In this document: positions 26,279-58,392 of the stretch, one piece after another
How positions within the stretch are numbered: position 1 is the first letter of the stretch
Layout: each line of letters opens with the position of its first letter
Source: a bacterium
GTDB taxonomy: Bacteria; Cyanobacteriota; Vampirovibrionia; Gastranaerophilales; JBAXKC01
Reading direction: 5' to 3'
Length of the DNA stretch: 64,000 nucleotides
NCBI GenBank assembly: GCA_037137535.1
Contig: JBAXKC010000006.1
Span: 1 to 64,000 of the forward strand
Translations under genes and position numbers: made by a program
The notes under the pieces: model-generated
Told to the model about the DNA's origin: nothing
Seen by the model: only the letters and a program-made list of their open reading frames with translations
Databases searched by the model: none

Positions 26279-27409
26279 ATGATGAATTTTGAAGAAATAA
26301 GAGAACATTTTCCTGTATGCCGTAACTTGATTTACTTTGATAACGCAGCTGTTGCTCCAATTCATACATTAAGCATTAAATATGCTGATGATTATTTAGA
26401 TCATTTTTTAAATTACGGATTTAGAGATTATGATACATGGTTCAATAAATACGAAGAAATAAGAGAAGGTCTTGGAAAATTTATAGGAGCTAAAAAATCT
26501 GAAATAGCTTTTATAAAAAATACTTCTGCGGGGATTTCTGTTTTTGCAAATGGTGTGGACTTTAAAGATGGCGATAATGTTATAATTCCAAATATTGAAT
26601 ACCCTGCAAATGTTTATCCATGGTTAAATCTAGCATCCAAAGGTGTTAAAACTAAGTTTTTAAAAGCTGATAACGGTTACATTGATCTTAATGCATTAAG
26701 TGCACTTATTGACTGTAATACACGAGTTCTTTCAATCAGTTGGATAGAATTTGTAAATGGATTTAAAAATGATTTAAAAGCTATATCAGAACTTTGCATG
26801 CAAAAATCTTTAGAGTATGGAAGAAAAATTTACTTTTGTGTAGATGCTATTCAAGGCTTAGGGGCTTTTGATATTGATGTAAAGGCTTTAAATATTGACT
26901 TTTTAGCGGCTGACGGACACAAATGGTTTTTAGCTCTTGAAGGAGCAGGATTTTTATATTGTTCTGAAGACATAATTGATGAAATTAAACCTGCATCTGT
27001 GGGCTGGAAAAGTGTTGAAAATCCTTTGGATTTTACTGATATTAATTTTACTCTTCAAAAGACAGCTAATAAATTTGAAGAAGGTACTTTAAATGTTGTT
27101 GGTATTCTTTCACTTGGTGCAAGTTTAGATCTTTTTAATTCAATAGGCATAAAGAATATTGAGGATAGAATACTCTCTCTAAGTAATTATGCAGTTGAAA
27201 AAATCTCTCAAAAAGCTGAATTGAAAAGTTATCGGCAAGAAAAGCATCGTTCGGGAATCATATCATTTGTTACAAAAGATATTGAGAAAGATTTCTTAAA
27301 GCTGCTTGCAAACAAAGTACAGCTATCAAAACGAGGCGAGATGTTAAGAATTTCTCCGCACTTCTATAATACTCATGAGGAAATTGATAGATTTGTGGAT
27401 ATGCTTTAA
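26279..27409 (+). CDS. PLP-dependent aminotransferase class V fold protein
   Basis: YFDNAA, DAIQGLG, GHKW (PLP Lys), FEEGTLN, RISPHFYN; no desulfurase catalytic Cys loop. Confidence 0.88.
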   Translation: MMNFEEIREHFPVCRNLIYFDNAAVAPIHTLSIKYADDYLDHFLNYGFRDYDTWFNKYEEIREGLGKFIGAKKSEIAFIKNTSAGISVFANGVDFKDGDNVIIPNIEYPANVYPWLNLASKGVKTKFLKADNGYIDLNALSALIDCNTRVLSISWIEFVNGFKNDLKAISELCMQKSLEYGRKIYFCVDAIQGLGAFDIDVKALNIDFLAADGHKWFLALEGAGFLYCSEDIIDEIKPASVGWKSVENPLDFTDINFTLQKTANKFEEGTLNVVGILSLGASLDLFNSIGIKNIEDRILSLSNYAVEKISQKAELKSYRQEKHRSGIISFVTKDIEKDFLKLLANKVQLSKRGEMLRISPHFYNTHEEIDRFVDML

Positions 27410-27657: not shown

Positions 27658-28242
27658 ATGGAAAATAACTATCTAAAAATAAATATTGTTGATGTAAATG
27701 AAATAATTTTAAGTTTACAAACTAATAAAAATGACTTTATAAAAAATCACATTAAACATACTAAAATTAAAAATATTGAATTTACTGTTAATAACTGTGT
27801 TTATGGGCAAGAAGTTATTTCATTTTGCTGTTTTATTAAAATACCTGTTTGGGAATTAAAATTGAGAGAACTGCTAAAGCCATTTCAACTGATAGATTTA
27901 GGTAATCAAATATTTGAAATAAAGTTTAACGATAAACACGTTAGTTATTTAAAATATCAGAAAAATTTTGGTATATATATTTTTAATGGACGACCTGATC
28001 TCTTTTCAAAAATGAAAAAAGAGAACTTTATTAATATAAATTATTTTGAAGAAACATTTCAAAATACCATTAATTTTGTGGAATTATTTTTAAATCTGAT
28101 ATATAAAGATAATATTCATTCTAAATTAGAAATAATGCCCTCAGCTAATAGAAAAAAAACAGAAACATTGGAATATAAAAAAACAAAAGAACTTCCTGAA
28201 TCACTAAAACGCTTTTATAAAAGAATTGGACACAATCAATGA
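27658..28242 (+). CDS. Hypothetical protein, first gene of nitrogenase-like operon (possibly degenerate LplA/LipB fold)
   Basis: ATGA overlap with the nifH-like gene; fold guess is weak. Confidence 0.7.
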   Translation: MENNYLKINIVDVNEIILSLQTNKNDFIKNHIKHTKIKNIEFTVNNCVYGQEVISFCCFIKIPVWELKLRELLKPFQLIDLGNQIFEIKFNDKHVSYLKYQKNFGIYIFNGRPDLFSKMKKENFININYFEETFQNTINFVELFLNLIYKDNIHSKLEIMPSANRKKTETLEYKKTKELPESLKRFYKRIGHNQ

Positions 28243-29084
28243 GCAAAAAAATCAGACAAATAGCTATATACGGAAAAGGCGGCATCGGAAAATCAACCAC
28301 TTCTTCAAATTTAACTGCTGCGATTAGCTATATGAATTTCAACCTTGCTCAAGTCGGTTGTGACCCTAAATCTGATTCTGTTAATTCACTTGTAAAGGGT
28401 GAATTTATAAAGACTGTTTCAGATTTAGTTAGAGATTATGGAGAAAGTGAAGAAACTTTATTAGAGTCAGTAAGGCAAGGTTTTAATAATATTTCTTGTA
28501 TTGAATCAGGCGGACCAGAACCGGGACAAGGATGTGCAGGCAGAGGTGTTTTAGTTGCGCTGAATTTAATTGAAAAATATAAAATTTATAAAAAATTCAA
28601 TATAGATTTTGTTGTATATGACGTACTTGGGGATATTGTCTGTGGTGGCTTTGCTCAGCCTGTAAGGCAAGGTTTTGCTGAAGAGATATACATTGTGACC
28701 AGCGGTGAATATATGTCGCTTTATGCGGCTAATAATATTGCTAAAAGTATTAAATCCTTTGCTGAAAGTGGATTGAATTCCAGACTTTGCGGAATAATTG
28801 CAAACTTGAAAAATACTGAAAACGAAAAAGATACTATTGAAGAATTCTCAAAAAAACTTAATGTTCCTGTTATACATTATGTTCCACGTTCTAAATTGGT
28901 ACAGGATGCAGAATTTCAAGGAATGACAGTTATTGAGGCTTTTCCTGACTCAGAACAGGCTGAACAATACTTTGAATTGGCTCATAATATAATAAATAAT
29001 ACAGTTAAAAACATTCCAACTCCTTTAAATAAAGAGGAATTGCTTAATTTAACACAAAAATATAGGCAAAATTATGTCAGATAA
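28239..29084 (+). CDS. nifH: Nitrogenase iron protein-like ATPase (NifH/BchL family, divergent group IV-like)
   Basis: YGKGGIGKSTT, GCDPKSDS, ESGGPEPGQGCAGRG, YDVLGDIVCGGFA, TSGEYMSLYAANNI; both [4Fe-4S] Cys kept. Confidence 0.92.
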   Translation: MSKKIRQIAIYGKGGIGKSTTSSNLTAAISYMNFNLAQVGCDPKSDSVNSLVKGEFIKTVSDLVRDYGESEETLLESVRQGFNNISCIESGGPEPGQGCAGRGVLVALNLIEKYKIYKKFNIDFVVYDVLGDIVCGGFAQPVRQGFAEEIYIVTSGEYMSLYAANNIAKSIKSFAESGLNSRLCGIIANLKNTENEKDTIEEFSKKLNVPVIHYVPRSKLVQDAEFQGMTVIEAFPDSEQAEQYFELAHNIINNTVKNIPTPLNKEELLNLTQKYRQNYVR

Positions 29085-30561
29085 AATAAAAACGAAATAT
29101 AATTGGGTAAAAGTTTCTGAAATGTATGACGAAACTCCTAATCTTAACTCCAATTATGCTAAAAATTGCACACATAAAGGCTATGAGGGTTTGTGGTGTA
29201 AACTAATTAAAGCAGTAACCTCTTATGGAATGACCAACGACTGCGTAGCGGTAATCCATGGGCCTACTAACTGTGCCTGGGCTGTTAGGAATTTCTGTTC
29301 TACCAATTATAGCCTATATTACGGTAATTCTTTCTTGCATATGCCTACAACTGCTTTGAATAACAGTTCAATAGTAAATGGCGCTGAAAAAGAACTTATA
29401 GACACTCTAATTGAGGTGGATAAAACTTATAAACCTCAACACATAGCAGTTTTTGATACTTGTTCTACCTCTTTAATAGGCGATAATATTCAAAATTGTA
29501 TTAACGAAGCTCAATTAAAATGTGCGGCTAAAATTAATTTTATTGAGGGAGCAGGGTTTTCTTCACCTCCATTAGGGCAATCTATTCAGGAAACTGCTGT
29601 AAAATACGGTGAAATCATGGAAAAACCTGTGCACATAATTCCTAAATCCGTTAATATTCTTGGACAATACAAAGAGGGGCATTGCAATAAAAAAAAGAAA
29701 AAAAGGGGTAAATATCCCGATGATGCTCAAGAGTTAGTGAGATATATCGAGGCATTAGGGCTTAATATTCATAGAGTTCTGATATCAGGCGATTATGAAT
29801 ATATTAAAACAGCACCAGAGGCTTTAGTAAATGTGATAAGTTGCCCAACATGGGGACTACCACTTGCTAAGACAATGAAAGACATGTTTGATACTCCTTA
29901 TTTGCCGCATTCTGTTCCGACAGGCATTGAGTCAACTTGCAGGTGGATAAGGGATTTGGCCTATTTTACGGATACGGTTGATGAAGCTGAAATTCTTATA
30001 AATAAAGAATTAGAGCTACTTAATTTGATTTTTGAAAAAGCAAAAACTCTTGTAAATGGAAAAACAGCCCTCATTGAATGTGGAAGAAATTCTATGACAG
30101 CCTTTGCAAGGCCGATGGCATTGGCAAGATTTCTTCAAGAGCTTGGAATGAAGCCGTATTTGTTCGGATTGCATCCGTTTGAGCTTAAAGCTAAAGGCAT
30201 TGACCTTGATTATTTCTTGTGGGATGGCTTTAATCCTATGATTTTAAGCGATCCGTATCATTATCAAAATCCCACTAATATTGCTAATGTGATAAAAGAT
30301 CTTGAATTAAAAGAAGAAGATTATGTCTATTTTTCACAAGATGTTTTTCCTATGGCAAAATCGGGAGAGTTTGACCCGTCCTCAAATGCTAAGGTTGAAG
30401 TAAGTGTTCATTTAAGAAGAGTTTTTAATTCGCCCGGTAGAGGTGTCGGTTTTAAGGGAGCTGAAGCACTTTGTCAGAATATTATAGAGTCGGTTTTAAT
30501 GGCATCAAGAAAAACAAAACCAACTCTTTATGGTAGAGTTCACGGTGAATTTTATGATTAA
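29074..30561 (+). CDS. Nitrogenase component 1-like protein, alpha (NifD/NifE/BchY-like)
   Basis: LWC..., IHGPTNC, DTCSTSLIGD, SVNILG, ISCP, PTGIESTCRWIR, GFKGA. Confidence 0.88.
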   Translation: MSDKIKTKYNWVKVSEMYDETPNLNSNYAKNCTHKGYEGLWCKLIKAVTSYGMTNDCVAVIHGPTNCAWAVRNFCSTNYSLYYGNSFLHMPTTALNNSSIVNGAEKELIDTLIEVDKTYKPQHIAVFDTCSTSLIGDNIQNCINEAQLKCAAKINFIEGAGFSSPPLGQSIQETAVKYGEIMEKPVHIIPKSVNILGQYKEGHCNKKKKKRGKYPDDAQELVRYIEALGLNIHRVLISGDYEYIKTAPEALVNVISCPTWGLPLAKTMKDMFDTPYLPHSVPTGIESTCRWIRDLAYFTDTVDEAEILINKELELLNLIFEKAKTLVNGKTALIECGRNSMTAFARPMALARFLQELGMKPYLFGLHPFELKAKGIDLDYFLWDGFNPMILSDPYHYQNPTNIANVIKDLELKEEDYVYFSQDVFPMAKSGEFDPSSNAKVEVSVHLRRVFNSPGRGVGFKGAEALCQNIIESVLMASRKTKPTLYGRVHGEFYD

Positions 30562-31954
30562 GAATAATTTTAAAGACTTAATGCAACCCGGAAGTTTTAT
30601 AGGAGCAACTTTAACTGCTTCGGGTATTAAAAACGCCATTATAATTTTTCATGGGATTGCAGGCTGTAATATCGAGGCAATACATTTCAGATCAGACCAG
30701 ATTCCGGGTGGGCATTATGTTCCTATAATACCGACAGGTTTAAACCAGACAGATTGCCTTTATGGGGGCTATGAAAAACTTATTACCACTTTGAGGGATA
30801 CTTTAAATTCTTCTATAAAACGAGGGCGACCACCAGAAGTTGTATTTATTTTTACAAGCGATGCTACTTCGATAATAGGTGATGATATAGAACGAGCCGC
30901 TAATGTTATAGAAGCTGAAACAAGTATTAAAACTATAGCAATTGATTGTCCCGGATTTGCAGGCGGAACAGCTCATGGTTGCGATATTACGGCTGAGGCT
31001 ATTTTTGAAAAATTCTTATACGAAAATAATTCTGAATTAAAGGATAAAAATGGAATTAACATAGTTTTCCCATATTTAATGGGTTCAAAAAACTGGGTTA
31101 ATGACCATGATGAAATTGTAAGACTTCTTGAAGCCTGTGATGTTAAAGTAAATACAGTTTTATCAAGAAATTTAAAGATAAAAGAATTAGACAAATTTTT
31201 TAATTCTAAAGCAAATTACAATCCTTCCTCAGAGAATATCCCTTCTCTGGAAAAATATTCAGAAACTTATGACATAAAAACCATTAATAACAGCATACCT
31301 TTGCCTATTGGTATAGCAAATACCGAAGAATGGCTTGTATATATGGCAAAAAATTATGGAAATTTCGAAAAAGCTAAAGAAATTTTAAAGCAGGATGCAG
31401 ATTTTATAAATTCTCAACTTAGATATAACTATAATTTCAGCTGGATAAGCACGTTAATGCATGGAAAATATTGTTCAATTTTAGCTCATGCTAATTTTGC
31501 GGCATCACTAGCCAGATGTTTATATTGGGATTTTGGGATAATTACTAAAGTTATCGGTATTGTTGCAGAAACTCAACAGGCAATAGATAATGCTTTAGAG
31601 CTTTTAGAGCCACTTAAAGAGTTTTTTGATATGGAAATCCTTATTAATCCGACTTATCATGAATATGGTCAAATGATGACTTCTAAAAACGTTGATTTTT
31701 CTATTGGGGCAATTCAAGATAAACCTTTATCTTTGGGATTAAAAGTGCCTCATTTATCTCTTGGTGGATATTACTTTTATAATCAATATAATTTTATTCC
31801 TTATCCAAATATGGGAATAAGAGGAGTATTAGGAATTATTACAGAACTATCAAGAGTTTTAGAAGATGCTTTTTATTTAAAAGATATGTTGTCTGAATAT
31901 TCATACAAGGGCAGGGAGGAAAATATTGAAAGCAGCTGTTCTACACCAAAATAA
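30554..31954 (+). CDS. Nitrogenase component 1-like protein, beta (NifK/NifN/BchZ-like)
   Basis: FIGA, FHGIAGC, YGGYEKL, TSDATSIIGDDI, CPGFAG, PIGIANTEEWL, PNMGIRG; start at ATG 30554 overlapping the upstream stop (track 30530). Confidence 0.87.
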   Translation: MIKNNFKDLMQPGSFIGATLTASGIKNAIIIFHGIAGCNIEAIHFRSDQIPGGHYVPIIPTGLNQTDCLYGGYEKLITTLRDTLNSSIKRGRPPEVVFIFTSDATSIIGDDIERAANVIEAETSIKTIAIDCPGFAGGTAHGCDITAEAIFEKFLYENNSELKDKNGINIVFPYLMGSKNWVNDHDEIVRLLEACDVKVNTVLSRNLKIKELDKFFNSKANYNPSSENIPSLEKYSETYDIKTINNSIPLPIGIANTEEWLVYMAKNYGNFEKAKEILKQDADFINSQLRYNYNFSWISTLMHGKYCSILAHANFAASLARCLYWDFGIITKVIGIVAETQQAIDNALELLEPLKEFFDMEILINPTYHEYGQMMTSKNVDFSIGAIQDKPLSLGLKVPHLSLGGYYFYNQYNFIPYPNMGIRGVLGIITELSRVLEDAFYLKDMLSEYSYKGREENIESSCSTPK

Positions 31955-32948
31955 TAATTTTTTAACGATAGAAGAAGTCGAGCTTCCTCTAATTAATGAT
32001 GATGAAATTCTTGTAAAAGTAATCGCATGTGGTGTTTGCCATACAGATTTGCACTATATAGATCATGGAGTGGATACTTTTCAATCAAAGCCTGTTATTT
32101 TAGGGCATGAAATATCTGGAATAGTTGAAGATAGTAAATCAGAGTATTTTGAAATTGGTGATAAAGTCTTATTACCTGCTGTTTACACCTGTGGAGAATG
32201 TTCATTCTGCTTGAAAGGAAGAGAAAACCTATGTAAAAACTTTACTATGCTTGGTAATTCTATCAATGGAGGCTTTGCCGAATATATTAAAGTAAAAGCA
32301 AAAGATTCTATAAAACTTCCTGATTCTATGCTTTTAGAGGAAAGTTGCATCATTGCAGATGCTGTTTCAACCCCATATTATGCAGTTGTACACAGAGCTA
32401 AAGTTGCAAAATATGAAAATGTTTTAATAGTAGGTTGTGGTGGTGTTGGAATAAATGCTGTTCAAATTGCTTCAATGCTTGGGGCAAATGTAATAGCGTG
32501 TGATATTAATGATAATAAGCTGAAAATTGCCAAAGAATTAGGTGCAAAACATACAGTGAACTTGGCAAAAGATGATTTAAAAACGTTCTTAAAAGATAAT
32601 AAAATTACTATAAATAAAGCGTTTGAAATAATCGGGCAGCCCAAAACGATTGAGCTGGCTTATAAAATGTTAGGAGTTGGCGGAAAACTTTGTATAATTG
32701 GCTATACTAATCAAAATATCAATATAAATCCTGCTAAAATTATGTTCTATGAGCAAGAAATAATTGGCTCATGCGGATGTCCTCCACGAATATATCCTGA
32801 AATTATTGAATTGGTTGAAAAAGGTAAATTAAATCTATCAAAAGTGATAAATAATAAATACTCTCTGGATGCTGTTAATAAAGCTTTTGACGAGCTAAGA
32901 AGCGGAAAGATTCTGCGTAATATCATCTTGCCTAATAGTAAAATATAG
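31926..32948 (+). CDS. Zn-dependent medium-chain dehydrogenase, Had/BamQ-like
   Basis: CGVCHTD, LGHEISG, CGECSFC..C, ADAVSTPY, GCGGVG, GSCGCPPRIYP; TTG start with AGGGAGGA RBS. Confidence 0.9.
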   Translation: MKAAVLHQNNNFLTIEEVELPLINDDEILVKVIACGVCHTDLHYIDHGVDTFQSKPVILGHEISGIVEDSKSEYFEIGDKVLLPAVYTCGECSFCLKGRENLCKNFTMLGNSINGGFAEYIKVKAKDSIKLPDSMLLEESCIIADAVSTPYYAVVHRAKVAKYENVLIVGCGGVGINAVQIASMLGANVIACDINDNKLKIAKELGAKHTVNLAKDDLKTFLKDNKITINKAFEIIGQPKTIELAYKMLGVGGKLCIIGYTNQNININPAKIMFYEQEIIGSCGCPPRIYPEIIELVEKGKLNLSKVINNKYSLDAVNKAFDELRSGKILRNIILPNSKI

Positions 32949-33067
32949 TCTTTAGCCAGAAATATATTACTCTATCTGATAAGCTACTGGCTAATTTGAA
33001 ATTTAAGATATATCTGAAAAAATATTGTTGGCTCAAACTATGAGCATTAAATATTTTAGAGGGTGAA

Positions 33068-33787
33068 ATGGTAGAAGTATTAGATAAATCGATTGCAAGC
33101 ATGTTAATTAATTCAGAAATTCAAATTATAGATTGTCGGATTGAATTTATTACTTATCTAAAACAAATTTTTATAAAAAACTTAGCTAGGGCTGTTGATT
33201 GGAATAAAATTTTTGATTTTAGTCTTAATTTTCTCTTGAAAATGAACTTAATTTCTATAAAAGTTAAAAATATAGAAAATTTAAGTTTTGCTCAGGCTAA
33301 ATATCCGGATATTTATTATTGCCTACAAGGAAGAACTTTAGATTTAATAATAAGTTATATTTTATCAAAACATGTTATTTGCTCTCAGATGATGTTGAAT
33401 TTTGATAGTAAAAAAGAACTTAATGAAGCAAATAATTTATATTCTTGCATAGAATTTCTTAGAAGAAATAAAGGTTCTGTATGGGTTGGTATTGATAAAA
33501 AACCTACTGATAAAATAGCAGAAGCTTATTCTTATGGTGATAATATGTCGTATATTTGCTCAAATCTAAGCGGAATAAATATATTACCGATTTCTCATAA
33601 ATTTAAAATAAGTAAAAAAATTGAGATATATTTTGAAGTTGGTAAACCAATAATATTAGGCTCAAATGATTTCAATGAAGAAGAACTGTCTGCTATATTT
33701 GAACAAGAAATTAAATCATTAGCCAATCAACAAAAAGAACAAATTATTAATAATGATTTTAGCGGTTATGATTATTCTTTAATATAA
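33068..33787 (+). CDS. Hypothetical protein, possibly degenerate PlsC-like acyltransferase fold
   Basis: VKNIENL, GINILPIS and IYFEVGKPI recall LPLAT structural segments; HxxxxD and FPEGTR are absent. Confidence 0.55.
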   Translation: MVEVLDKSIASMLINSEIQIIDCRIEFITYLKQIFIKNLARAVDWNKIFDFSLNFLLKMNLISIKVKNIENLSFAQAKYPDIYYCLQGRTLDLIISYILSKHVICSQMMLNFDSKKELNEANNLYSCIEFLRRNKGSVWVGIDKKPTDKIAEAYSYGDNMSYICSNLSGINILPISHKFKISKKIEIYFEVGKPIILGSNDFNEEELSAIFEQEIKSLANQQKEQIINNDFSGYDYSLI

Positions 33788-33796
33788 TTTCTTCAT

Positions 33797-33841
33797 AAAA
33801 AAGAGTTTTGCCATTTTCTTTTATGCAAAACTCTTTTTTTT
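33797..33841. terminator. Bidirectional terminator
   Basis: AAAAAAGAGTTTTGC/GCAAAACTCTTTTTT. Confidence 0.85.
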
Positions 33842-34405: not shown

Positions 34406-35038
34406 TTAAATTAAAATATTCATTTGCATCGCTAGGAGTACAGCCTGTGTTCTATTTGAAACGTTTAATTTTTTGAAAATGCTGTTCAGGTGAGTTTTGA
34501 CAGTCACCTCTCTTACAAAGAGTTTATCAGCTATGTCTTGATTGTTTGCACCCTGAGCAACCATTTTTAAAACTTCTTTTTCTCTTGTTGTAAGCGGTGC
34601 AATTGGCTCATTTGTAGTGAATGGAAGGTTTAACGCTTTTGATTGTGTTTGTTTACTGTTCCAGTTTGATCTTCTTAAAAGAGCTTCTACTCTAGCCAAT
34701 AGATTTGGTAACGCAAACGGTTTGACTATATAGTCATCAGCTCCAAATTTCAAGCCTGAAATTTGTTTTTGTTCACTATCTATTGCCGTAAGCATAATGA
34801 TAGGAATATCTTCAATTTCTTTAGTATTTCTTATTGCCTTTAATGTTTCCCAGCCGTCCATATTTGGCATCATAACATCAAGAATTATCATATCAATACT
34901 ATTATTTGGTGCTGATATGATTTTTAGTGCCTGCAATCCATCAGTAGCAACTACAATTTCGTAACCGTACATCGGAAGCACATCGCTTAGGTATTTTGGA
35001 TTATCATCTACAATTAAAATTTTAGCTATGGAAGACAT
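34406..35038 (-). CDS. Response regulator with LuxR-type HTH
   Basis: IVDD, LDVMMP, GADDYIVKPF receiver; LTTREKEVL...TVKTHLNSIFKKL. Confidence 0.92.
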   Translation of the reverse strand: MSSIAKILIVDDNPKYLSDVLPMYGYEIVVATDGLQALKIISAPNNSIDMIILDVMMPNMDGWETLKAIRNTKEIEDIPIIMLTAIDSEQKQISGLKFGADDYIVKPFALPNLLARVEALLRRSNWNSKQTQSKALNLPFTTNEPIAPLTTREKEVLKMVAQGANNQDIADKLFVREVTVKTHLNSIFKKLNVSNRTQAVLLAMQMNILI

Positions 35039-35104
35039 TTAATACTATCCTAATGTTATATAAAACTACGCTACCAAATATTATAGCAGGATTTGAATAA
35101 ATTG

Positions 35105-35806
35105 TTAAACTATACCATCTTTTAATGCTTTTATTGCAGCTTGAGTCCTGTCATCAACAGATAGCTTTTGAAGTATATTACAAACATGAGCTTTTGCGGT
35201 ATGTATACTTACAAAAAGTTTTTCTGCTATCTCTGCATTACTAAAGCCATCAACAATAAGTTTAAGAACTTCTAATTCTCTTTCTGTCAACTGGATTTTT
35301 TCAGAAGGTTCTTCATCTAAAGCATTTTCAGTTGTTTTATTTCCTCCTATTTCCACCGATGTTAAACACTTACCACTTTTTATTGATTTTAAAACTACAT
35401 CTGCAATAGCAGGATCTAACCATGCTGCACCATCATAAACTGATTCTATTACATGAAGAAGTCTGTCAGGTTCTATATCTTTCAGGCAATATGCATTAGC
35501 ACCTGCTGTCAATGCTGTCCATACTTCGCTTTCATTGTTGTGAGAGGTAAGAATAATGACTTTTGTTTTAGTGTCATTATTCTTAATTTCTTTTGTCGCC
35601 TGAATACCGTTTATTCCCGGTAAGCCAAGATCCATAAGGATAATATCAGGTTTTATTTCTTTAGCTAATTGAACACCTGTTTCACCATCTTCAGCTTCAT
35701 AAATATTTGTAATATTGCCTAATGATTCTAGTGCAGTTTTAAGCCCAAACCTTGTTAGGGTATGGTCTTCTATGATTAATACGCGTATGTTTTTAATTTT
35801 ATTCAA
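35105..35806 (-). CDS. NarL/FixJ-family response regulator
   Basis: IEDHTLTR, MDLGLP, GANAYCLKD, LTERELEVL...TAKAHV; paralogue of 4981-5646. Confidence 0.92.
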   Translation of the reverse strand: MNKIKNIRVLIIEDHTLTRFGLKTALESLGNITNIYEAEDGETGVQLAKEIKPDIILMDLGLPGINGIQATKEIKNNDTKTKVIILTSHNNESEVWTALTAGANAYCLKDIEPDRLLHVIESVYDGAAWLDPAIADVVLKSIKSGKCLTSVEIGGNKTTENALDEEPSEKIQLTERELEVLKLIVDGFSNAEIAEKLFVSIHTAKAHVCNILQKLSVDDRTQAAIKALKDGIV

Positions 35807-54124: not shown

Positions 54125-54340
54125 TTTAACCCTTTTAACTTGATCGCCACTAATTAGTAGTATTTTATCAAATATATCGTTTTATATGTACTTTTACATT
54201 GATTAATTTTTAATTTTAATTATACACTTTAACCATTATATAAAATAAATAATCTGATATTAATGTCCAATTGGCTGATACTACTGTGGGACAAAGAAGT
54301 AAAAATAAATAGTATTAATAAATATTTAAGAGGTAAACAA

Positions 54341-54817
54341 ATGACTTCTTATGAAATACTACCTGAAAAATTAGCCGATTCTATTTCAAATTGGAAGGAT
54401 AAAAAAGGCAGTTTAATCATGATTTTACATGATGTTCAGGATTTTTACGGTTATGTTCCAAAAAATCTATGTTTTACACTGGCTAAAACTCTTAAAATTC
54501 CTCTTGCCAGAATTTATGAAGTTTTAACGTTTTATAACTATTTTAGGCTTAAAAAACCTGCAAAAAATAAAATTTCAATTTGTATGGGTACGGCATGTTA
54601 TTTAAAAGGTGCTCCTCTCCTTCTTGAAACAATAAAAGAACAATTAAAGATTAACGAAGGTCAAATAACTGCAGATGGACAATTTGGATTAGAAAATGTC
54701 CGATGTGTCGGCTGTTGCGGCTTATCTCCTGTTGTTGCCGTAAACGGTAAAATTTATGGAAAACTTGATAAAGTAAAAATATTAAATATATTAAATGAAT
54801 ATAAAAAGGAAGGGTAA
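54341..54817 (+). CDS. hydC: [FeFe]-hydrogenase subunit gamma (NuoE-like [2Fe-2S])
   Basis: CMGTACYLKG, RCVGCCGLSP; GAGG RBS before ATG 54341. Confidence 0.9.
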   Translation: MTSYEILPEKLADSISNWKDKKGSLIMILHDVQDFYGYVPKNLCFTLAKTLKIPLARIYEVLTFYNYFRLKKPAKNKISICMGTACYLKGAPLLLETIKEQLKINEGQITADGQFGLENVRCVGCCGLSPVVAVNGKIYGKLDKVKILNILNEYKKEG

Positions 54818-54822
54818 GCTGC

Positions 54823-56616
54823 ATGCCAAAATTAACAAAAAACTTTCCTGATAAATATATTGAAAATAATGAACAGGATTTTATAAAAGTCGGAATGAGT
54901 AGTTGTGGTATTGCGGCCGGTGCTGATGAAATATATGAGGCTTTACTAAATAAGGTAAAAGAAGAAAACCTTCCGATTGAAATTAAAAAATGCGGTTGCC
55001 TTGGAATGTGTTATGCAGAACCGATTATAGAGGTTAAAACAGGTAATACTCCTTCAGTTAAATATAGAAATCTGGATGTTGAAAAATCTCTAAATATCCT
55101 TGAAAATACAGTATTAAATAAAGAATATGATAAAAACCTTTTAATAAAAGAAAATGGCAAACAGAAAAAAGTTGTTCTTCAACATTGCGGAATAATTGAT
55201 CCTGAAAATATCGAAGATTATCTTTCGATAAAAGGTTATCAATCTTTAAGAAAAGTTCTTTTTGAACTTGGGGCAGATAAAACGCTTGAAGAAGTTAAAA
55301 AAAGTGGTTTAAGAGGTCGTGGTGGAGCAGGTTATCCTACATGGCAAAAATGGACCGTAGCAAAAGAAATTAAGACAGCCGAAAATAAATTTATAATCTG
55401 TAACGGTGATGAAGGTGATCCCGGTGCTTATATGGATAGAAGTATGCTTGAGGGTGATCCGCATTCTGTGATTGAAGGACTTATGATTGCAGGTTATACA
55501 ATAGGAGCTTCTAAAGGTATTTTTTACATTAGAGCAGAATATCCTCTTGCCGTAGAACGTGTTCAAAAAGCATTAGATCAATGTTATGAATATGGATTAC
55601 TCGGAGAAAATATTCTTGAATCAGGTTTTAAATTTGATGTTGAAATAAGACTTGGCGCAGGGGCGTTTGTTTGCGGCGAAGAAACAGCTCTTATTGCTTC
55701 AATAGAAGGTAAAAGAGGTTATCCACGTCCACGTCCTCCTTTTCCTGCAACTCAAGGCTTGTGGGATATGCCTACAATTATAAATAACGTTGAAACGCTC
55801 TCTAATCTTCCTTATCTGATTTCTAACGGAGGAGGATTTTTTGCTCAAATCGGAACTGAAAAATCAAAAGGAACTAAAGTTTTTGCCTTAACAGGAAAAG
55901 TAAAAAAGCCAGGGCTTGCAGAAGTCCCAATGGGCACAACATTAAGAGATATTATTTATGCTATCGGCGGCGGGATAAGCAAAGATAAAGAATTTAAGGC
56001 AGTACAAACAGGCGGACCATCAGGTGGTCTTATTCCTAAAGAGCTTTTAGATACAGAGGTCAGCTATGAAAGTCTTGTAGAACTTGGCTCAATTATGGGG
56101 TCAGGCGGGATGATTATTATGGATGAAGATGATTGCGTTGTCGATATTGCAAAATTCTTTATTGAATTTTCCGTTGATGAATCCTGTGGGAAATGCGCAC
56201 CTTGTAGAATTGGCAGCACTCAATTATTAAAAATCTTAGAACGTATTTCTGACGGAAAAGGCAAGCTTGAAGATTTAGATAAATTGAAAAAAATTTCTAT
56301 TGCAATGCAAAAGGCTTCACTTTGTGGACTTGGACAAACAGCTCCTAAACCCGTACTTTCAACATTAAGATACTTTGAAGAGGAGTATATTGAGCATATT
56401 ACAGCTAAAAAATGTAGAGCCGGTCAATGTGTTGCTTTAAAAAAATATTCAGTTGATCAACATCATTGCGTGAAATGTGGAGCTTGCTTCAAAGAATGTC
56501 CTGTATCAGCTATTAAAGGAAACAGGCAGGAAGGTTATGAAGTTATTTCCGAGAAGTGCATAAAATGCGGTAAATGTTATGACGCTTGTAAGTTTGATGC
56601 GATAAAAAGGAATTAA
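54823..56616 (+). CDS. hydB: [FeFe]-hydrogenase subunit beta (NuoF-like, FMN/NADH)
   Basis: N-terminal thioredoxin-like 2Fe-2S domain, SGLRGRGGAG, DEGDPGAYMD, GGPSGG, SCGKCAPCR, C-terminal 2x[4Fe-4S]. Confidence 0.92.
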   Translation: MPKLTKNFPDKYIENNEQDFIKVGMSSCGIAAGADEIYEALLNKVKEENLPIEIKKCGCLGMCYAEPIIEVKTGNTPSVKYRNLDVEKSLNILENTVLNKEYDKNLLIKENGKQKKVVLQHCGIIDPENIEDYLSIKGYQSLRKVLFELGADKTLEEVKKSGLRGRGGAGYPTWQKWTVAKEIKTAENKFIICNGDEGDPGAYMDRSMLEGDPHSVIEGLMIAGYTIGASKGIFYIRAEYPLAVERVQKALDQCYEYGLLGENILESGFKFDVEIRLGAGAFVCGEETALIASIEGKRGYPRPRPPFPATQGLWDMPTIINNVETLSNLPYLISNGGGFFAQIGTEKSKGTKVFALTGKVKKPGLAEVPMGTTLRDIIYAIGGGISKDKEFKAVQTGGPSGGLIPKELLDTEVSYESLVELGSIMGSGGMIIMDEDDCVVDIAKFFIEFSVDESCGKCAPCRIGSTQLLKILERISDGKGKLEDLDKLKKISIAMQKASLCGLGQTAPKPVLSTLRYFEEEYIEHITAKKCRAGQCVALKKYSVDQHHCVKCGACFKECPVSAIKGNRQEGYEVISEKCIKCGKCYDACKFDAIKRN

Positions 56617-56619
56617 TAA

Positions 56620-58392
56620 ATGATAAATGCAAATATCAACGGAATAAATATACAGGTTGAAGAAGGTACAACAATTCTTGAAGCGGCAAAGCTTGCAAAT
56701 ATAAAAATACCGTCATTATGTAAACATAGTGACCTTGACGCCACAGCAGCCTGTGGAATTTGTGTTGTTAAAGTTAAAGGTGTTGAGCGAATGATAAGAT
56801 CTTGCTGTACCGCTTTAACTGAAGGAATGGAAATTTTAACACATACCCCTGAAGTAATCGATATAAGAAAAACTGTTTTAGAATTAATTCTTTCAAACCA
56901 CCCTAACAGCTGTCTGACATGCGGAAGAAATCAAAACTGTGAGCTTCAATCACTTGCCGCAGAATTTGGAATAAAAGAGGAAGAGTTTGGCAAAATATTA
57001 AAAGATTTTGAAATTGATGACTCAATAAAAACAATCGTATTAGAGCCTAATAAATGTATTAAATGCGAACGATGTATTCAGGCATGCCAGAATATGCAGA
57101 ATGTTTGGGCTTTATCTTTCGTTGATAGAGGTATAAAAACAAGAATAGCACCTGCTGCTGATTTCAAACTAAGTGAATCGCCTTGCGTAAGCTGTGGTCA
57201 ATGTGCCGCTCATTGCCCTGTCGGTGCTATTTATGAATATGATGAAACGGCTAAAGTGTGGGATGCTCTTAATGATAGTTCAAAATATTGCGTTGTTCAG
57301 ATAGCTCCTGCCGTAAGAGTTGCTATTGGGGAATCTTTCGGGATACAAAGCGGTGAGGTTGTTACTAAAAAACTATATACATTATTAAGAAGAATGGGGT
57401 TTGAAGCTGTTTTTGATACTAATTTCGGGGCTGATATCACTATAATTGAAGAATCTACTGAATTTGTAAAAAGGCTGACGTCAAAAAACTCTGTATTACC
57501 TTTAATTACAAGTTGTTGCCCTGCGTGGGTTGATTTTATGGAAAAATTTCATTCTGATATGATTCCTAACTTCTCAACATGTAAATCTCCTCATGAAATG
57601 CTTGCAACACTTGCTAAAACATACTATCCGCAACAAGCAAATATTAATCCTTCCAATATATTTATGGTTTCTATTATGCCCTGTATCGCCAAAAAGTTTG
57701 AAATTCACAGAAGTCAGGATATGTATGCTTCAGGCTATCAGGATGTTGATGTATCCATTACCACAAGGGAATTAGTAAGAATGATAAAGCAGACAGGTCT
57801 TGATTTTGCTTCACTTCCCGAAAGCGAAGCAGATTCTCTCCTTGCTGATTACTCCGGAGGTGGCACAATATTTGGAAATACGGGCGGAGTTATGGAAGCA
57901 GCTCTAAGAACCGTTAATTATTATGTAACAGGTGAAAACCTTGCAAATCTTGAACTTAATGAAGTAAGAGGTTTAAAAGGTGTTAAAGAAGCTGAAATTA
58001 AGGTTGGTGAATATAATGTTAAAATTGCAGTTGCACATGGATTAAGTAATGTTGAATATGTTGTAAATAAAATAAGAAAAGCAAAAGAAAATGGCGAAGA
58101 ACCTCCATATCACTTTGTAGAAGTTATGGCATGCCCTGGTGGTTGTATAGGTGGTGGTGGACAGCCAAGAAATGTTAATAATGAAGTAAGGTTGCTGAGA
58201 GCAAAAGGGCTTTATATCGATGATAAAAATCGTAAATTCAGAAATTGCCACGAAAATCCACAAATTCATAAGCTTTATGATGAATTTTTAGGTAAAGCAG
58301 GCGGAGAAAAAAGTCATGAATTACTCCATCTCTATTATCAGCAAAGAGAGCCTTATATAGATTATCGAGAAACAGATAATCTCAATGATTGA
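56620..58392 (+). CDS. hydA: [FeFe]-hydrogenase catalytic subunit (group A3)
   Basis: H-cluster motifs TSCCPAW, MPCIAKKFE, EVMACPGGCIGGGGQP; N-terminal 2Fe-2S, HxxxCxxC and 2x[4Fe-4S]. Confidence 0.95.
   Translation: MINANINGINIQVEEGTTILEAAKLANIKIPSLCKHSDLDATAACGICVVKVKGVERMIRSCCTALTEGMEILTHTPEVIDIRKTVLELILSNHPNSCLTCGRNQNCELQSLAAEFGIKEEEFGKILKDFEIDDSIKTIVLEPNKCIKCERCIQACQNMQNVWALSFVDRGIKTRIAPAADFKLSESPCVSCGQCAAHCPVGAIYEYDETAKVWDALNDSSKYCVVQIAPAVRVAIGESFGIQSGEVVTKKLYTLLRRMGFEAVFDTNFGADITIIEESTEFVKRLTSKNSVLPLITSCCPAWVDFMEKFHSDMIPNFSTCKSPHEMLATLAKTYYPQQANINPSNIFMVSIMPCIAKKFEIHRSQDMYASGYQDVDVSITTRELVRMIKQTGLDFASLPESEADSLLADYSGGGTIFGNTGGVMEAALRTVNYYVTGENLANLELNEVRGLKGVKEAEIKVGEYNVKIAVAHGLSNVEYVVNKIRKAKENGEEPPYHFVEVMACPGGCIGGGGQPRNVNNEVRLLRAKGLYIDDKNRKFRNCHENPQIHKLYDEFLGKAGGEKSHELLHLYYQQREPYIDYRETDNLND

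Follow-up and report, generated by a model that had tools for sequence, protein, structure and literature searches.

Here we report a nitrogenase-like operon at positions 27,658 to 33,787 of a 64,000-nucleotide stretch of bacterial DNA (assembly GCA_037137535.1, contig JBAXKC010000006.1, positions 1 to 64,000), referred to below as the window. The operon encodes an Fe protein of the NifH type (H) and two nitrogenase-like subunits (D and K). We put at about one half the probability that these three form a stand-alone ATP-dependent reductase for an organic substrate, with a bridging cluster of the NifEN type and an L-cluster-like cofactor made by NifB. The evidence for this reading comes from the cluster ligands kept in D and K, the phylogenetic position of D, and the linkage and co-occurrence of the family with a NifB-like protein. 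The original prediction, made from the window alone, had proposed an ATP-dependent reductase coupled to a dehydrogenase; its core idea of a reductase stands, NifB has been added to it, and the coupling to the dehydrogenase is downgraded to partial. The window genome is labelled G000, other genomes are given as G, contigs as C and compared loci as L, each with a number. The operon and its terminator are laid out as follows.

27658..28242, + strand: X1, 194 aa; no Pfam or NCBIfam match
28239..29084, + strand: H, 281 aa; NifH-type ATP-dependent reductase (Fe protein), PF00142 at 321.9 bits
29074..30561, + strand: D, 495 aa; PF00148; predicted alpha-type catalytic subunit of a nitrogenase-like family placed as sister to VnfE
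30530..31954, + strand: K, 474 aa; beta-type subunit, PF00148 at 171 bits
31926..32948, + strand: ADH, 340 aa, TTG start; Zn-dependent medium-chain dehydrogenase, ADH_N and ADH_zinc_N
33068..33787, + strand: O6, 239 aa; divergent PlsC-type (lysophospholipid) acyltransferase-like protein
33797..33839, bidirectional: intrinsic terminator between O6 and a convergent pentapeptide-repeat gene, from the RNA fold

The first five genes overlap at their stop and start regions by 4 nt (X1-H), 11 nt (H-D), 32 nt (D-K) and 29 nt (K-ADH), and O6 follows ADH after a gap of 119 nt. The hairpin at about 33797-33839, with an A-run on its 5' side and a U-run on its 3' side, has a folding energy of -19.9 kcal/mol (z -5.76), and none of 200 shuffled sequences was as stable; a simple consensus scan alone failed to detect it. 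Coordinates, overlaps and hairpin thus confirm the layout that had been proposed, namely five overlapping genes, a sixth co-oriented open reading frame (ORF) and one strong terminator, and X1-H-D-K-ADH-O6 is a genuine operon.

Subunits and cluster ligands

By its scores and motifs, H is a complete and near-canonical NifH, similar to NifH and CfbC and not to BchL or BchX. It reached 371.5 bits against the nifH model TIGR01287 (cut-off 394.35) and 350.1 bits against CfbC (cut-off 402), with 201.2 bits for BchL (cut-off 345.15) and 198.6 bits for BchX (cut-off 331.2). Among solved structures, it scored 286 bits both to M. acetivorans NifH (6nzj) and to MarH (9fmg_D), and about 158 bits to ChlL. 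The P-loop GKGGIGKS and the cluster cysteine motifs GCAGRG and VCGGF are visible in the alignment.

Ligand residues were counted over 68 sequences of D (61 of them distinct) and 39 sequences of K; the A. vinelandii residue numbers attached to the ligand positions are in part those that we take to apply. Cys42, Cys67 and Cys130 of D are invariant (68/68) and align with the three bridging-cluster cysteines of NifE, VnfE, VnfD and ChlN. A fourth residue, Cys257, aligns with the cofactor cysteine of NifE, VnfE and VnfD (equivalent to NifD-Cys275, and presumably to NifE-Cys250 in A. vinelandii numbering) and is kept in 46 of the 68 sequences; the 22 exceptions have Thr (19), Ser (2) or Phe (1) and lie almost all in a distant clade, called clade B here. 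His446 of D occurs only alongside Cys257, with both residues present in 36 sequences, Cys only in 10, His only in none and neither in 22. In K, Cys46 is invariant (39/39) at the position of NifK-Cys95 and NifN-Cys44, and the positions of NifK-Cys70 and NifK-Cys153 are occupied by an invariant Gly21 and an invariant Asp111, respectively. With three cysteines in D and one in K, the pair falls short of the six P-cluster cysteines of nitrogenase. As aligned, the ligands follow the 3+1 O-cluster pattern of NifEN, to which a NifD-like internal cofactor cysteine is added, and not that of a P-cluster. Thr21 of D stands in the column of Cys32 of the cyanobacterial NifE reference, where the family has Thr, Leu, Met or Ala; this column probably corresponds to the surface L-cluster cysteine (A. 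vinelandii NifE Cys25, NifD position 48).

Family and phylogeny

D and K lie outside the characterised families, as had been suggested, with scores far under the curated cut-offs. The best curated model for D was nifE at 109.2 bits (cut-off 505.1), followed by nifD at 73.5 (653.55), BchB at 62.4 (490), VNFD at 60.3 (823.1), ANFD at 44.4 (873.8) and CfbD at 40.7 (268.4). K reached 48.6 bits against nifK (cut-off 427.3) and 37.9 against nifN (326.8), and neither subunit exceeded the 62.4 bits of BchB against models of the BchN/B/Y/Z type, all with cut-offs of 490 or more. The best solved match of D was NifE at 59 bits, with MarD (9fmg_A) at 39.1 bits; that of K was the MarD alpha chain (9fmg_A) at 62 bits, with MarK (9d9u_C/9fmg) at 30.1 bits.

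A search of 5.8 billion proteins returned about 69 clusters of D homologues (clustered at 90% identity) with 38-81% identity, mostly in Vampirovibrionia. Below them the score drops sharply to ordinary nitrogenase-family proteins of 24-26% identity. In a library clustered at 50% identity, 31 representatives match D at E<=1e-30, and none of the 104 nearest representatives outside the family reaches any curated NCBIfam cut-off. The C-terminal 100 residues or so of D are matched by about two dozen sequences (E below about 1e-49), and weaker hits mostly end near residue 400; D thus carries a distinct, conserved C-terminal segment that only family members match.

A careful tree was computed with IQ-TREE (64 rows, 462 columns, LG+C20+F+G4; support given as UFBoot/SH-aLRT) after removal of two very long-branched rows (P0122, P0131). 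Its references came from one cyanobacterial genome and were labelled by curated scores, VnfE and VnfN by their position in vnfDG-K-E-N clusters. The D family is monophyletic in this tree (100/100) and sister (100/100) to a VnfE-like clade (100/99), in which three unnamed representatives group with the cyanobacterial VnfE reference. NifD (a fragment), VnfD and NifE form a separate clade (100/100) with the D family outside it. The K family is likewise monophyletic (100/100), with a weak attachment to VnfK/NifK/NifN (83/60). The topology recurred in a quick tree with 82 rows, in which ChlN and ChlB were also represented and fell elsewhere. The reference set is small, the rooting is not established, and the trees hold neither Mar, Isr, Nfa, CfbD, BchY/Z or Group VI references, Mar and CfbD being judged by their low scores, nor labelled sequences of Groups IV-A, IV-D, IV-E and IV-F. 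Within this frame, the trees place D firmly in an uncharacterised nitrogenase-like family that is sister to the cyanobacterial VnfE-like clade, and the D and K families each appear monophyletic and ancient.

Matches to D at 31-32% identity in 5 of 45 cyanobacterial genomes of family f13 were considered as possible members and rejected, as they are VnfE genes within vnfDG-K-E-N clusters. In the cyanobacterial reference genome G260, nifD lies in two pieces about 6 kb apart (C1:1951101-1951826 and 1958213-1958677; L095 and L097), an arrangement that we take to resemble the excision elements of heterocyst-forming cyanobacteria.

Host and distribution

The host is a metagenome-assembled genome (MAG) of the order Gastranaerophilales, in a non-photosynthetic sister lineage of Cyanobacteria; placement in the genome library and named relatives bear out what had been raised as a possibility. 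G000 comprises 2.95 Mb in 81 contigs, is rated 100% complete, and is the sole member of its family in the library, where it shares its order with family f2 (genomes of 1.6-2.2 Mb). Operon DNA was matched in freshwater or lake metagenome runs, one of which may be its source, and this points to a freshwater host; no RNA run was listed among them. Named records with close homologues of D are MAGs of Melainabacteria, Gastranaerophilales, 'Cyanobacteria bacterium UBA9971/UBA9579' and Ca. Caenarcanum. Three further such records carry the title 'uncultured Gammaproteobacteria'; for one of them, L078, this label looks wrong, because its D-match identity and gene order are those of contig C4 of G401, which is placed in Vampirovibrionia.

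G000 contains a single PF00148 pair (D and K) and a single true NifH-type gene (H). With no second pair and no second NifH, it has neither nifEN nor NifDK, and the claim that H/D/K are orphans holds for a genome rated as complete. Among 401 sampled genomes of the class, D was found at E<=1e-20 in three (G000, G401 and G406). These relatives were found by an alignment-based search; a query of the contigs with the single D protein found none.

Association with NifB

The window itself has no nifB. In the rest of the genome nifEN is likewise absent, and one NifB-like gene is present on another contig.

G000:C15:3716-4489: NifB-like radical-SAM protein, 258 aa, on a contig apart from the operon

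This protein scored 237.5-239.9 bits against TIGR01290 (cut-off 343.65) over model positions 5-277, has no NifX domain, and reached 203 bits to the solved NifB 6y1x, with the HPC, CxxxCxxC and HCxxCR(A/S)DA motifs aligned. Across the 401 genomes of the class, NifB-like proteins (E<=1e-15) occur in exactly the three D carriers; neither D nor a NifB-like protein was found in the remaining 398, including 188 of family f2 and 104 of family f45. Since G401 and G406 share one family, this co-occurrence represents two or three independent lineages. A NifB-like gene was also found in four of five further MAGs that bear H/D/K.

The closest linkage was seen in L077, whose D is 49% identical to that of the window. 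Here the genes abut in the order HTH regulator, crotonase, GNAT, H, NifB, NifX-like, D and K, and the NifB protein carries a NifX-like domain and reaches 370.4 bits, over the cut-off of 343.65. On gene order and scores, these in-operon nifB and nifX-like genes are the strongest evidence for a NifB-derived cluster in the family. As a NifB-like protein co-occurs with D and is encoded within the operon of a relative, the enzyme probably holds a complex NifB-derived cluster and not a simple [4Fe-4S] cluster.

The dehydrogenase and other operon genes

We compared 64 loci in addition to the window: 46 from metagenomes, 16 from named genomes and 2 cut from G401 and G406. They were not de-replicated, and some organisms are assembled twice. 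Close loci were taken as evaluable when D was at least 55% identical and K, lying next to it, was followed by 1 kb of sequence or more. In the 13 loci so defined, K is followed by ADH in three (L026, L030, L032), by an unrelated uncharacterised gene termed c7 in eight and by other genes in two. In the more distant relatives G401, G406 and L077 (48-50% identity), ADH is missing beside K; the first two have an unlinked one, 3' of a metallophosphoesterase gene. At the genome level, ADH homologues (E<=1e-60) occur in all three H/D/K-positive genomes (G000, G401, G406) versus 3 of the 398 H/D/K-negative genomes of the class. Seven more D-bearing contigs are equal in nucleotide size to ADH-bearing contigs (59-77% ADH identity), and are presumably the same contigs. 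The proposed coupling of reductase and dehydrogenase is thus retained at the level of genome co-occurrence and fails as a conserved adjacency, with ADH beside K in only 3 of 13 close loci.

ADH had also been called similar to 6-hydroxycyclohex-1-ene-1-carbonyl-CoA dehydrogenase (Had). The Had model, TIGR03201, is indeed the best by about 70 bits, with 268.8 bits and the next model at 197, but the score lies under the cut-off of 338.65 and ordinary alcohol dehydrogenases do equally well, so that the label is suggestive only. No crotonase is adjacent to ADH in the window. In G522, an H/D/K-negative genome, the ADH homologue lies within a cluster of crotonase, ADH, thiolase and FadB genes, from which the ADH family likely acts on acyl-CoA compounds.

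Conservation of X1 and O6 as parts of the system, implied by their place in the predicted operon, did not hold up, their homologues being too sparse across the loci compared. The single homologue of X1 is a partial ORF in L029; its Atlas model is of low confidence (pLDDT 0.50), with no match above 0.9. In G401 and G406 an uncharacterised ORF of 255-287 aa overlaps H in the place of X1. Besides the window, only L030 and L032 have O6 after ADH. The protein of the window has no Pfam match; its homologues in L030 and L032 (26-27% identity) match PF01553 at 31.2 and 28.9 bits (cut-off 23), and its Atlas structure matches LPLAT clusters of Melainabacteria with a TM score of 0.68. X1, the upstream ORF of G401 and G406, c7 and O6 show no mutual profile similarity (hhalign probability at most 1.1%). 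Neither X1 nor O6 is a conserved component; both are lineage-specific additions, and the membership of O6 is doubtful.

The c7 protein has about 300-314 aa and no Pfam match. It was defined in L021 (5821-6765), with homologues in L022, L023, L025, L034, L036, L069 and L071, and has weak paralogues in G000 on contigs C63 and C34. A convergent thioredoxin gene accompanies it in seven of the eight loci; L023 ends inside c7.

Operon boundary and the rest of the window

Upstream of the operon lie the following two features.

26279..27409, + strand: SufS-family class-V aminotransferase/cysteine desulfurase, PF00266 at 207.9 bits
27564..27591, + strand: terminator-like hairpin 3' of the SufS-like gene, from a consensus scan; 10-bp stem followed by a T-run

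The SufS-like protein scored 180.8 bits against the sufS model TIGR01979, under its cut-off of 475, and tblastn found no homologue of it next to H/D/K at the 64 other loci. The hairpin may separate this gene from the operon and mark the 5' operon boundary; it is weak evidence, since such consensus sites are no commoner across the region than in shuffled sequences. The SufS-like gene likely belongs to a separate transcription unit.

None of the 55 ORFs of the window is a nifB, nifE, nifN, nifU, nifV, PII/NifI, bch/chl or cfb gene by a Pfam scan, in line with the gene absences claimed for the window. The accompanying claim that nifS is missing is true in the strict sense only, because a SufS-family gene adjoins the operon upstream.

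Two LuxR-type response regulators are convergent to the operon just 3' of it (34406-35806, - strand). In G401 (L112:4724-7233), the genes for a crotonase and the NifB-like protein are followed directly, on the same strand, by those for a GAF-histidine kinase and a LuxR-type regulator. The LuxR-type proteins near the operon and near the NifB-like gene of G401 may be regulators of the system. Further downstream in the window (54263-58392) are genes for a NuoE-like protein, a NuoF-like protein and an [FeFe]-hydrogenase, a trio of the HydABC type that is probably electron-bifurcating. This trio fits a fermentative anaerobe, in which it could plausibly supply or take up low-potential electrons. At its start (101-532, - strand), the window carries a partial DDE transposase.

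Proposed mechanism and acyl-CoA context

From the ligand pattern, the position of D, and the linkage and co-occurrence with NifB, we infer the clusters and the electron path. A dimer of H, being of the NifH type, would hydrolyse ATP and hand low-potential electrons to a bridging [4Fe-4S] cluster held by three cysteines of D and one of K, with the invariant Asp of K nearby. The electrons would then pass to an [8Fe-9S-C] cofactor of the L-cluster type, made by NifB and ligated in D by Cys257, at which an organic substrate would be reduced or reductively cleaved. Our preferred guess for this substrate is a CoA-thioester or its hydroxy or oxo derivative. In the window host, the co-transcribed Had-like Zn-dehydrogenase would handle a neighbouring alcohol/ketone step. 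We favour an enzyme over a maturase because the genome lacks a recipient of the NifDK type.

Several neighbouring genes point towards acyl-CoA compounds. The crotonases in the L077 operon and beside the NifB-like gene of G401 have cyclohexa-1,5-dienecarbonyl-CoA hydratase (Dch) as their best model, at 165 and 139 bits, respectively (cut-off 292.5), and L081 carries an ADP-forming acyl-CoA synthetase two small genes 3' of K. The most extensive context is that of clade B, in which D is about 37% identical to that of the window. Its gene order is an NMT1/SsuA-type ABC transporter, D, K, a 3-hydroxyacyl-CoA dehydrogenase, a NifH-NifH fusion and an aldehyde dehydrogenase. L049, by family scan, has a PaaK-like CoA ligase too, and in many loci a UbiD-family gene lies nearby. 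The reductase of clade B is a tandem fusion of 585-607 aa, a single chain in which PF00142 is matched twice, and would amount to a covalently linked 'dimer' of the Fe protein.

L040:9729-11486 and L049:3772-5595: NifH-NifH fusion; also in L043, L044, L045, L048, L050 and L054

CoA-thioester chemistry is our leading substrate idea. That the substrate is a CoA-thioester or a closely related organic acid seems quite possible to us, at somewhat less than even odds. Its more specific form, which we hold to be a long shot, is a CoA-thioester reductase, possibly dearomatising or acting on a dienoyl-CoA, in which a NifB-made carbide cluster would sit in a NifEN-like scaffold and the product would pass to a hydratase resembling Dch and a dehydrogenase resembling Had. 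The arrangement would be analogous in function only to class I benzoyl-CoA reductase with Dch, Had and Oah, where an ATP-coupled low-potential reduction is followed by a hydratase and a Zn-dehydrogenase. Unlike that system, H/D/K are not homologous to BcrABCD, all matches are under cut-off, and the Oah-like gene of G000 is not specific to H/D/K. G000 encodes one BcrAD_BadFG ATPase (168 bits), and its HGD-D matches reach at most 28.7 bits. A crotonase of the Oah/BadI/MenB type in G000 (C15:31776-32726) was considered as a linked pathway gene and rejected, its orthologues being present in 116 of 371 class genomes irrespective of H/D/K. Among the papers listed on benzoyl-CoA, dearomatization, aromatics and UbiD, none mentions nitrogenase-like enzymes.

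Weighing the evidence

A number of observations weigh against the proposed enzyme. Clade B, the source of most of the CoA context, lacks Cys257 (Thr in 19 sequences, Ser in 2), and may for that reason work differently. The equation of His446 with NifD-His442 depends on the placement of gaps, where MAFFT and hhalign disagree and the confidence of hhalign is low. Several close loci have no K beside D: L024 and L033/L067 have D without K, and L075 has H and D only (D 57-62% identical, with up to 9 kb of flanking sequence); D may act there as a homomer, K may be encoded elsewhere, or the loci may be decaying. The co-occurrence counts for NifB rest on two or three independent lineages only, and no NifB-like gene was found in G629, one of the five extra H/D/K genomes, whose completeness is unknown. 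No accessory gene is conserved family-wide, ADH following K in just 3 of 13 close loci. Every match to a benzoyl-CoA-pathway model is under its cut-off, ADH scores 193 bits to a solved ordinary alcohol dehydrogenase and 185 to a solved Had, and orthologues of the Oah/BadI/MenB-like crotonase, 55-69% identical, are found for example in 92 of 104 genomes of family f45. The substrate class is accordingly a guess: the model matches are sub-threshold, ordinary dehydrogenases equal Had, clade B has no Cys257, and the Oah-like crotonase is independent of H/D/K.

The main rival is the cleavage of C-S bonds in organosulfur compounds in the manner of Mar or Isr, by which sulfur would be freed from a thioether, sulfonate or thio-acyl compound while the dehydrogenases process the carbon product. 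In the accessible text of a 2026 review, Mar and Isr are the nitrogenase-like (NFL) systems with a NifB homologue and identified substrates, and both cleave C-S bonds; that text and the accessible part of the Mar preprint report Group IV genes as associated with sulfur metabolism, and MarB is described there as having no NifX domain, like the NifB-like protein of G000. The NMT1/SsuA-type transporter just upstream of D in clade B (binding protein in 8 loci, ATPase in 10), the thioredoxin gene convergent to the operon in seven close loci and the SufS-family gene upstream in the window would also fit. Yet the match of D to MarD is no better than 39 bits and that of K to MarK no better than 30, two of the three P-cluster cysteines that Mar, as described, keeps are missing from K, and the SufS-like gene stands beside H/D/K in none of the 64 other loci. 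No genes for cysteine or methionine synthesis, sulfite reductase or methionine salvage were found in the neighbourhoods scanned, which were subsets of the loci. We consider this explanation unlikely.

An improbable alternative is a living NifEN-like 'proto-nitrogenase', in which H, NifB and a pair sister to VnfEN would use an L-cluster for a weak reduction of N2 or for that of other small unsaturated molecules, among them acetylene, CO, cyanide and azide. Its appeal is that NifEN carrying the L-cluster reduces N2 with NifH and that an ancient nitrogenase resembling NifEN has been proposed (PMC11168457, as far as its accessible text goes), that early-diverging VnfE clades lie near the root of nitrogenases and maturases in the accessible part of Garcia et al. 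(2022), and that D is sister to the VnfE clade. The gene set, H with D/K and NifB and no NifDK, fits as well, and H is almost a bona fide NifH (371.5 against 394.35 bits). Against this stand the neighbours of the operon, which are organic-acid enzymes, and the lack of PII/NifI, amtB, glnA and nifV genes beside it in the loci scanned. The 3+1 bridging cluster is, moreover, the less efficient type, clade B keeps the operon despite the loss of the cofactor cysteine, and the tree on which the argument leans has no established root and few references.

Still less probable, in our view, is a simple [4Fe-4S] enzyme of the DPOR, COR, CfbCD or Group VI kind, with a tetrapyrrole or a cofactor precursor as substrate and the NifB-like protein serving another purpose. 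The 3+1 cysteine pattern, which we take to be that of COR-type clusters too, counts in its favour, as does a small, single-copy operon resembling those for cofactor biosynthesis. The invariant Asp of K recalls the Asp ligand contributed by BchB in DPOR, as described in the accessible text of the 2026 review. Against it, the NifB-like gene tracks D exactly and in L077 lies within the operon together with a NifX-like gene. Cys257 is kept at the cofactor position, H is NifH/CfbC-like (371 bits versus about 200 for BchL/X), no tetrapyrrole genes are found among the ORFs of the window, and Group VI NflH is described, in the available text, as a sibling of Group V that is about 40% identical to NifH and lacks NifB. 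The least probable explanation is that the operon of a VnfEN-type maturase has persisted, decaying or without function, since nitrogenase was lost. It would account for the sisterhood of D and VnfE, for the patchy distribution (3 of 401 class genomes) and for the loci noted above with D alone or with H and D only; it is hard to reconcile with about 69 clusters of full-length D with invariant ligand cysteines, with intact and translationally coupled ORFs in the window, and with D and K families that each appear monophyletic and ancient. The maturase surface cysteine is also absent, and there is no VnfDK remnant in the genome.

Relation to known systems

Of the characterised systems, NifEN/VnfEN come closest to the proposed reductase, the nearest labelled relative of D being a VnfE of the cyanobacterial type. 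Shared features are the three alpha and one beta cysteines, the cofactor-site cysteine, a partner of the NifH type and, as we propose here, dependence on NifB. The differences are that there is no NifDK or VnfDK recipient, that Thr21 replaces the surface L-cluster cysteine, that D scores 109 bits of the 505 needed for nifE, that it has its own C-terminal 100 residues or so, and that dehydrogenases and crotonases take the place of nif genes as its operon partners. Nif/Vnf/Anf nitrogenases have in common with H/D/K the three-component layout, a near-canonical NifH, NifB (its requirement here being predicted) and the equivalent of Cys275; in contrast, D lies outside the NifD/VnfD/NifE clade, K lacks two P-cluster cysteines, and the genome has no nifEN. 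A search of the window found no nifV and no PII/NifI.

MarBHDK (Group IV-C) and Isr (Group IV-F), as far as the published text consulted describes them, are likewise stand-alone H/D/K systems outside nitrogen fixation, with a NifB homologue that lacks NifX and a cysteine at the position of NifD-Cys275. By the same text, Mar keeps six P-cluster cysteines and has MarB in its operon, whereas here there are four cysteines and NifB is usually unlinked; published Mar homologues are about 52-65% identical to each other, and D and K are far from MarD and MarK in score. No sulfur-metabolism genes are adjacent here in the neighbourhoods scanned, in contrast to Mar and Isr, the latter compared by description only. 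DPOR (BchLNB/ChlLNB), COR (BchXYZ), CfbCD and Group VI resemble the proposed enzyme as ATP-dependent nitrogenase-like systems that reduce organic compounds and have a single bridging [4Fe-4S] cluster, predicted in our case, but they need no NifB, and here H is NifH-like and the context has no tetrapyrrole genes. CfbCD (Group IV-B) further differs in its D-only architecture and in its methanogen or ANME hosts with cfb genes, whereas K is present here and the window contains no cfb. Group VI NflHDK of Elusimicrobia was set apart by its published description, which in the text available gives a tetrapyrrole context rich in radical-SAM genes and no NifB.

The accessible text of the 2026 review assigns Nfa, CfbCD, Mar and Isr to Group IV, DPOR and COR to Group V, and systems of unknown function from Elusimicrobia to Group VI, and names uncharacterised nitrogenase-like systems as a main challenge in the field. 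For Melainabacteria, one study, in its available part, reports that conserved nif clusters are missing and treats the group as non-diazotrophic. The nitrogenase of Melainabacteria ACD20 (Di Rienzi 2013) was considered as the same system and rejected, since by the text available its genes, nifE, nifV, nifS, nifU and nifB among them, make up a conventional nif cluster of group III. Our search of the literature on nitrogenase and nitrogenase-like genes of Melainabacteria, Gastranaerophilales and Vampirovibrionia found no description of the clade; supplements lay outside that search and may list it.

Significance

In summary, the family is a well-defined case for what is an open problem of the field, with a reductase of the NifH type, NifEN-type ligands and an association with NifB, and with no nitrogenase partner. 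Judged from its genes, it would be an extant stand-alone system of the general architecture NifH plus NifB plus a pair sister to VnfEN, without NifDK. Its place beside an early-diverging VnfE lineage makes it relevant to models that derive nitrogenase from maturase-like L-cluster proteins, as these are set out in the portions of the literature available. With H at 371.5 bits against a cut-off of 394.35, loose surveys of diazotrophs based on nifH or nifB could miscount these organisms. If the CoA-thioester reading is true, the family would widen the known chemistry of iron-sulfur-carbide cofactors, and, as an extant case in a sister lineage of Cyanobacteria, would show what NifEN-like scaffolds did outside nitrogen fixation.

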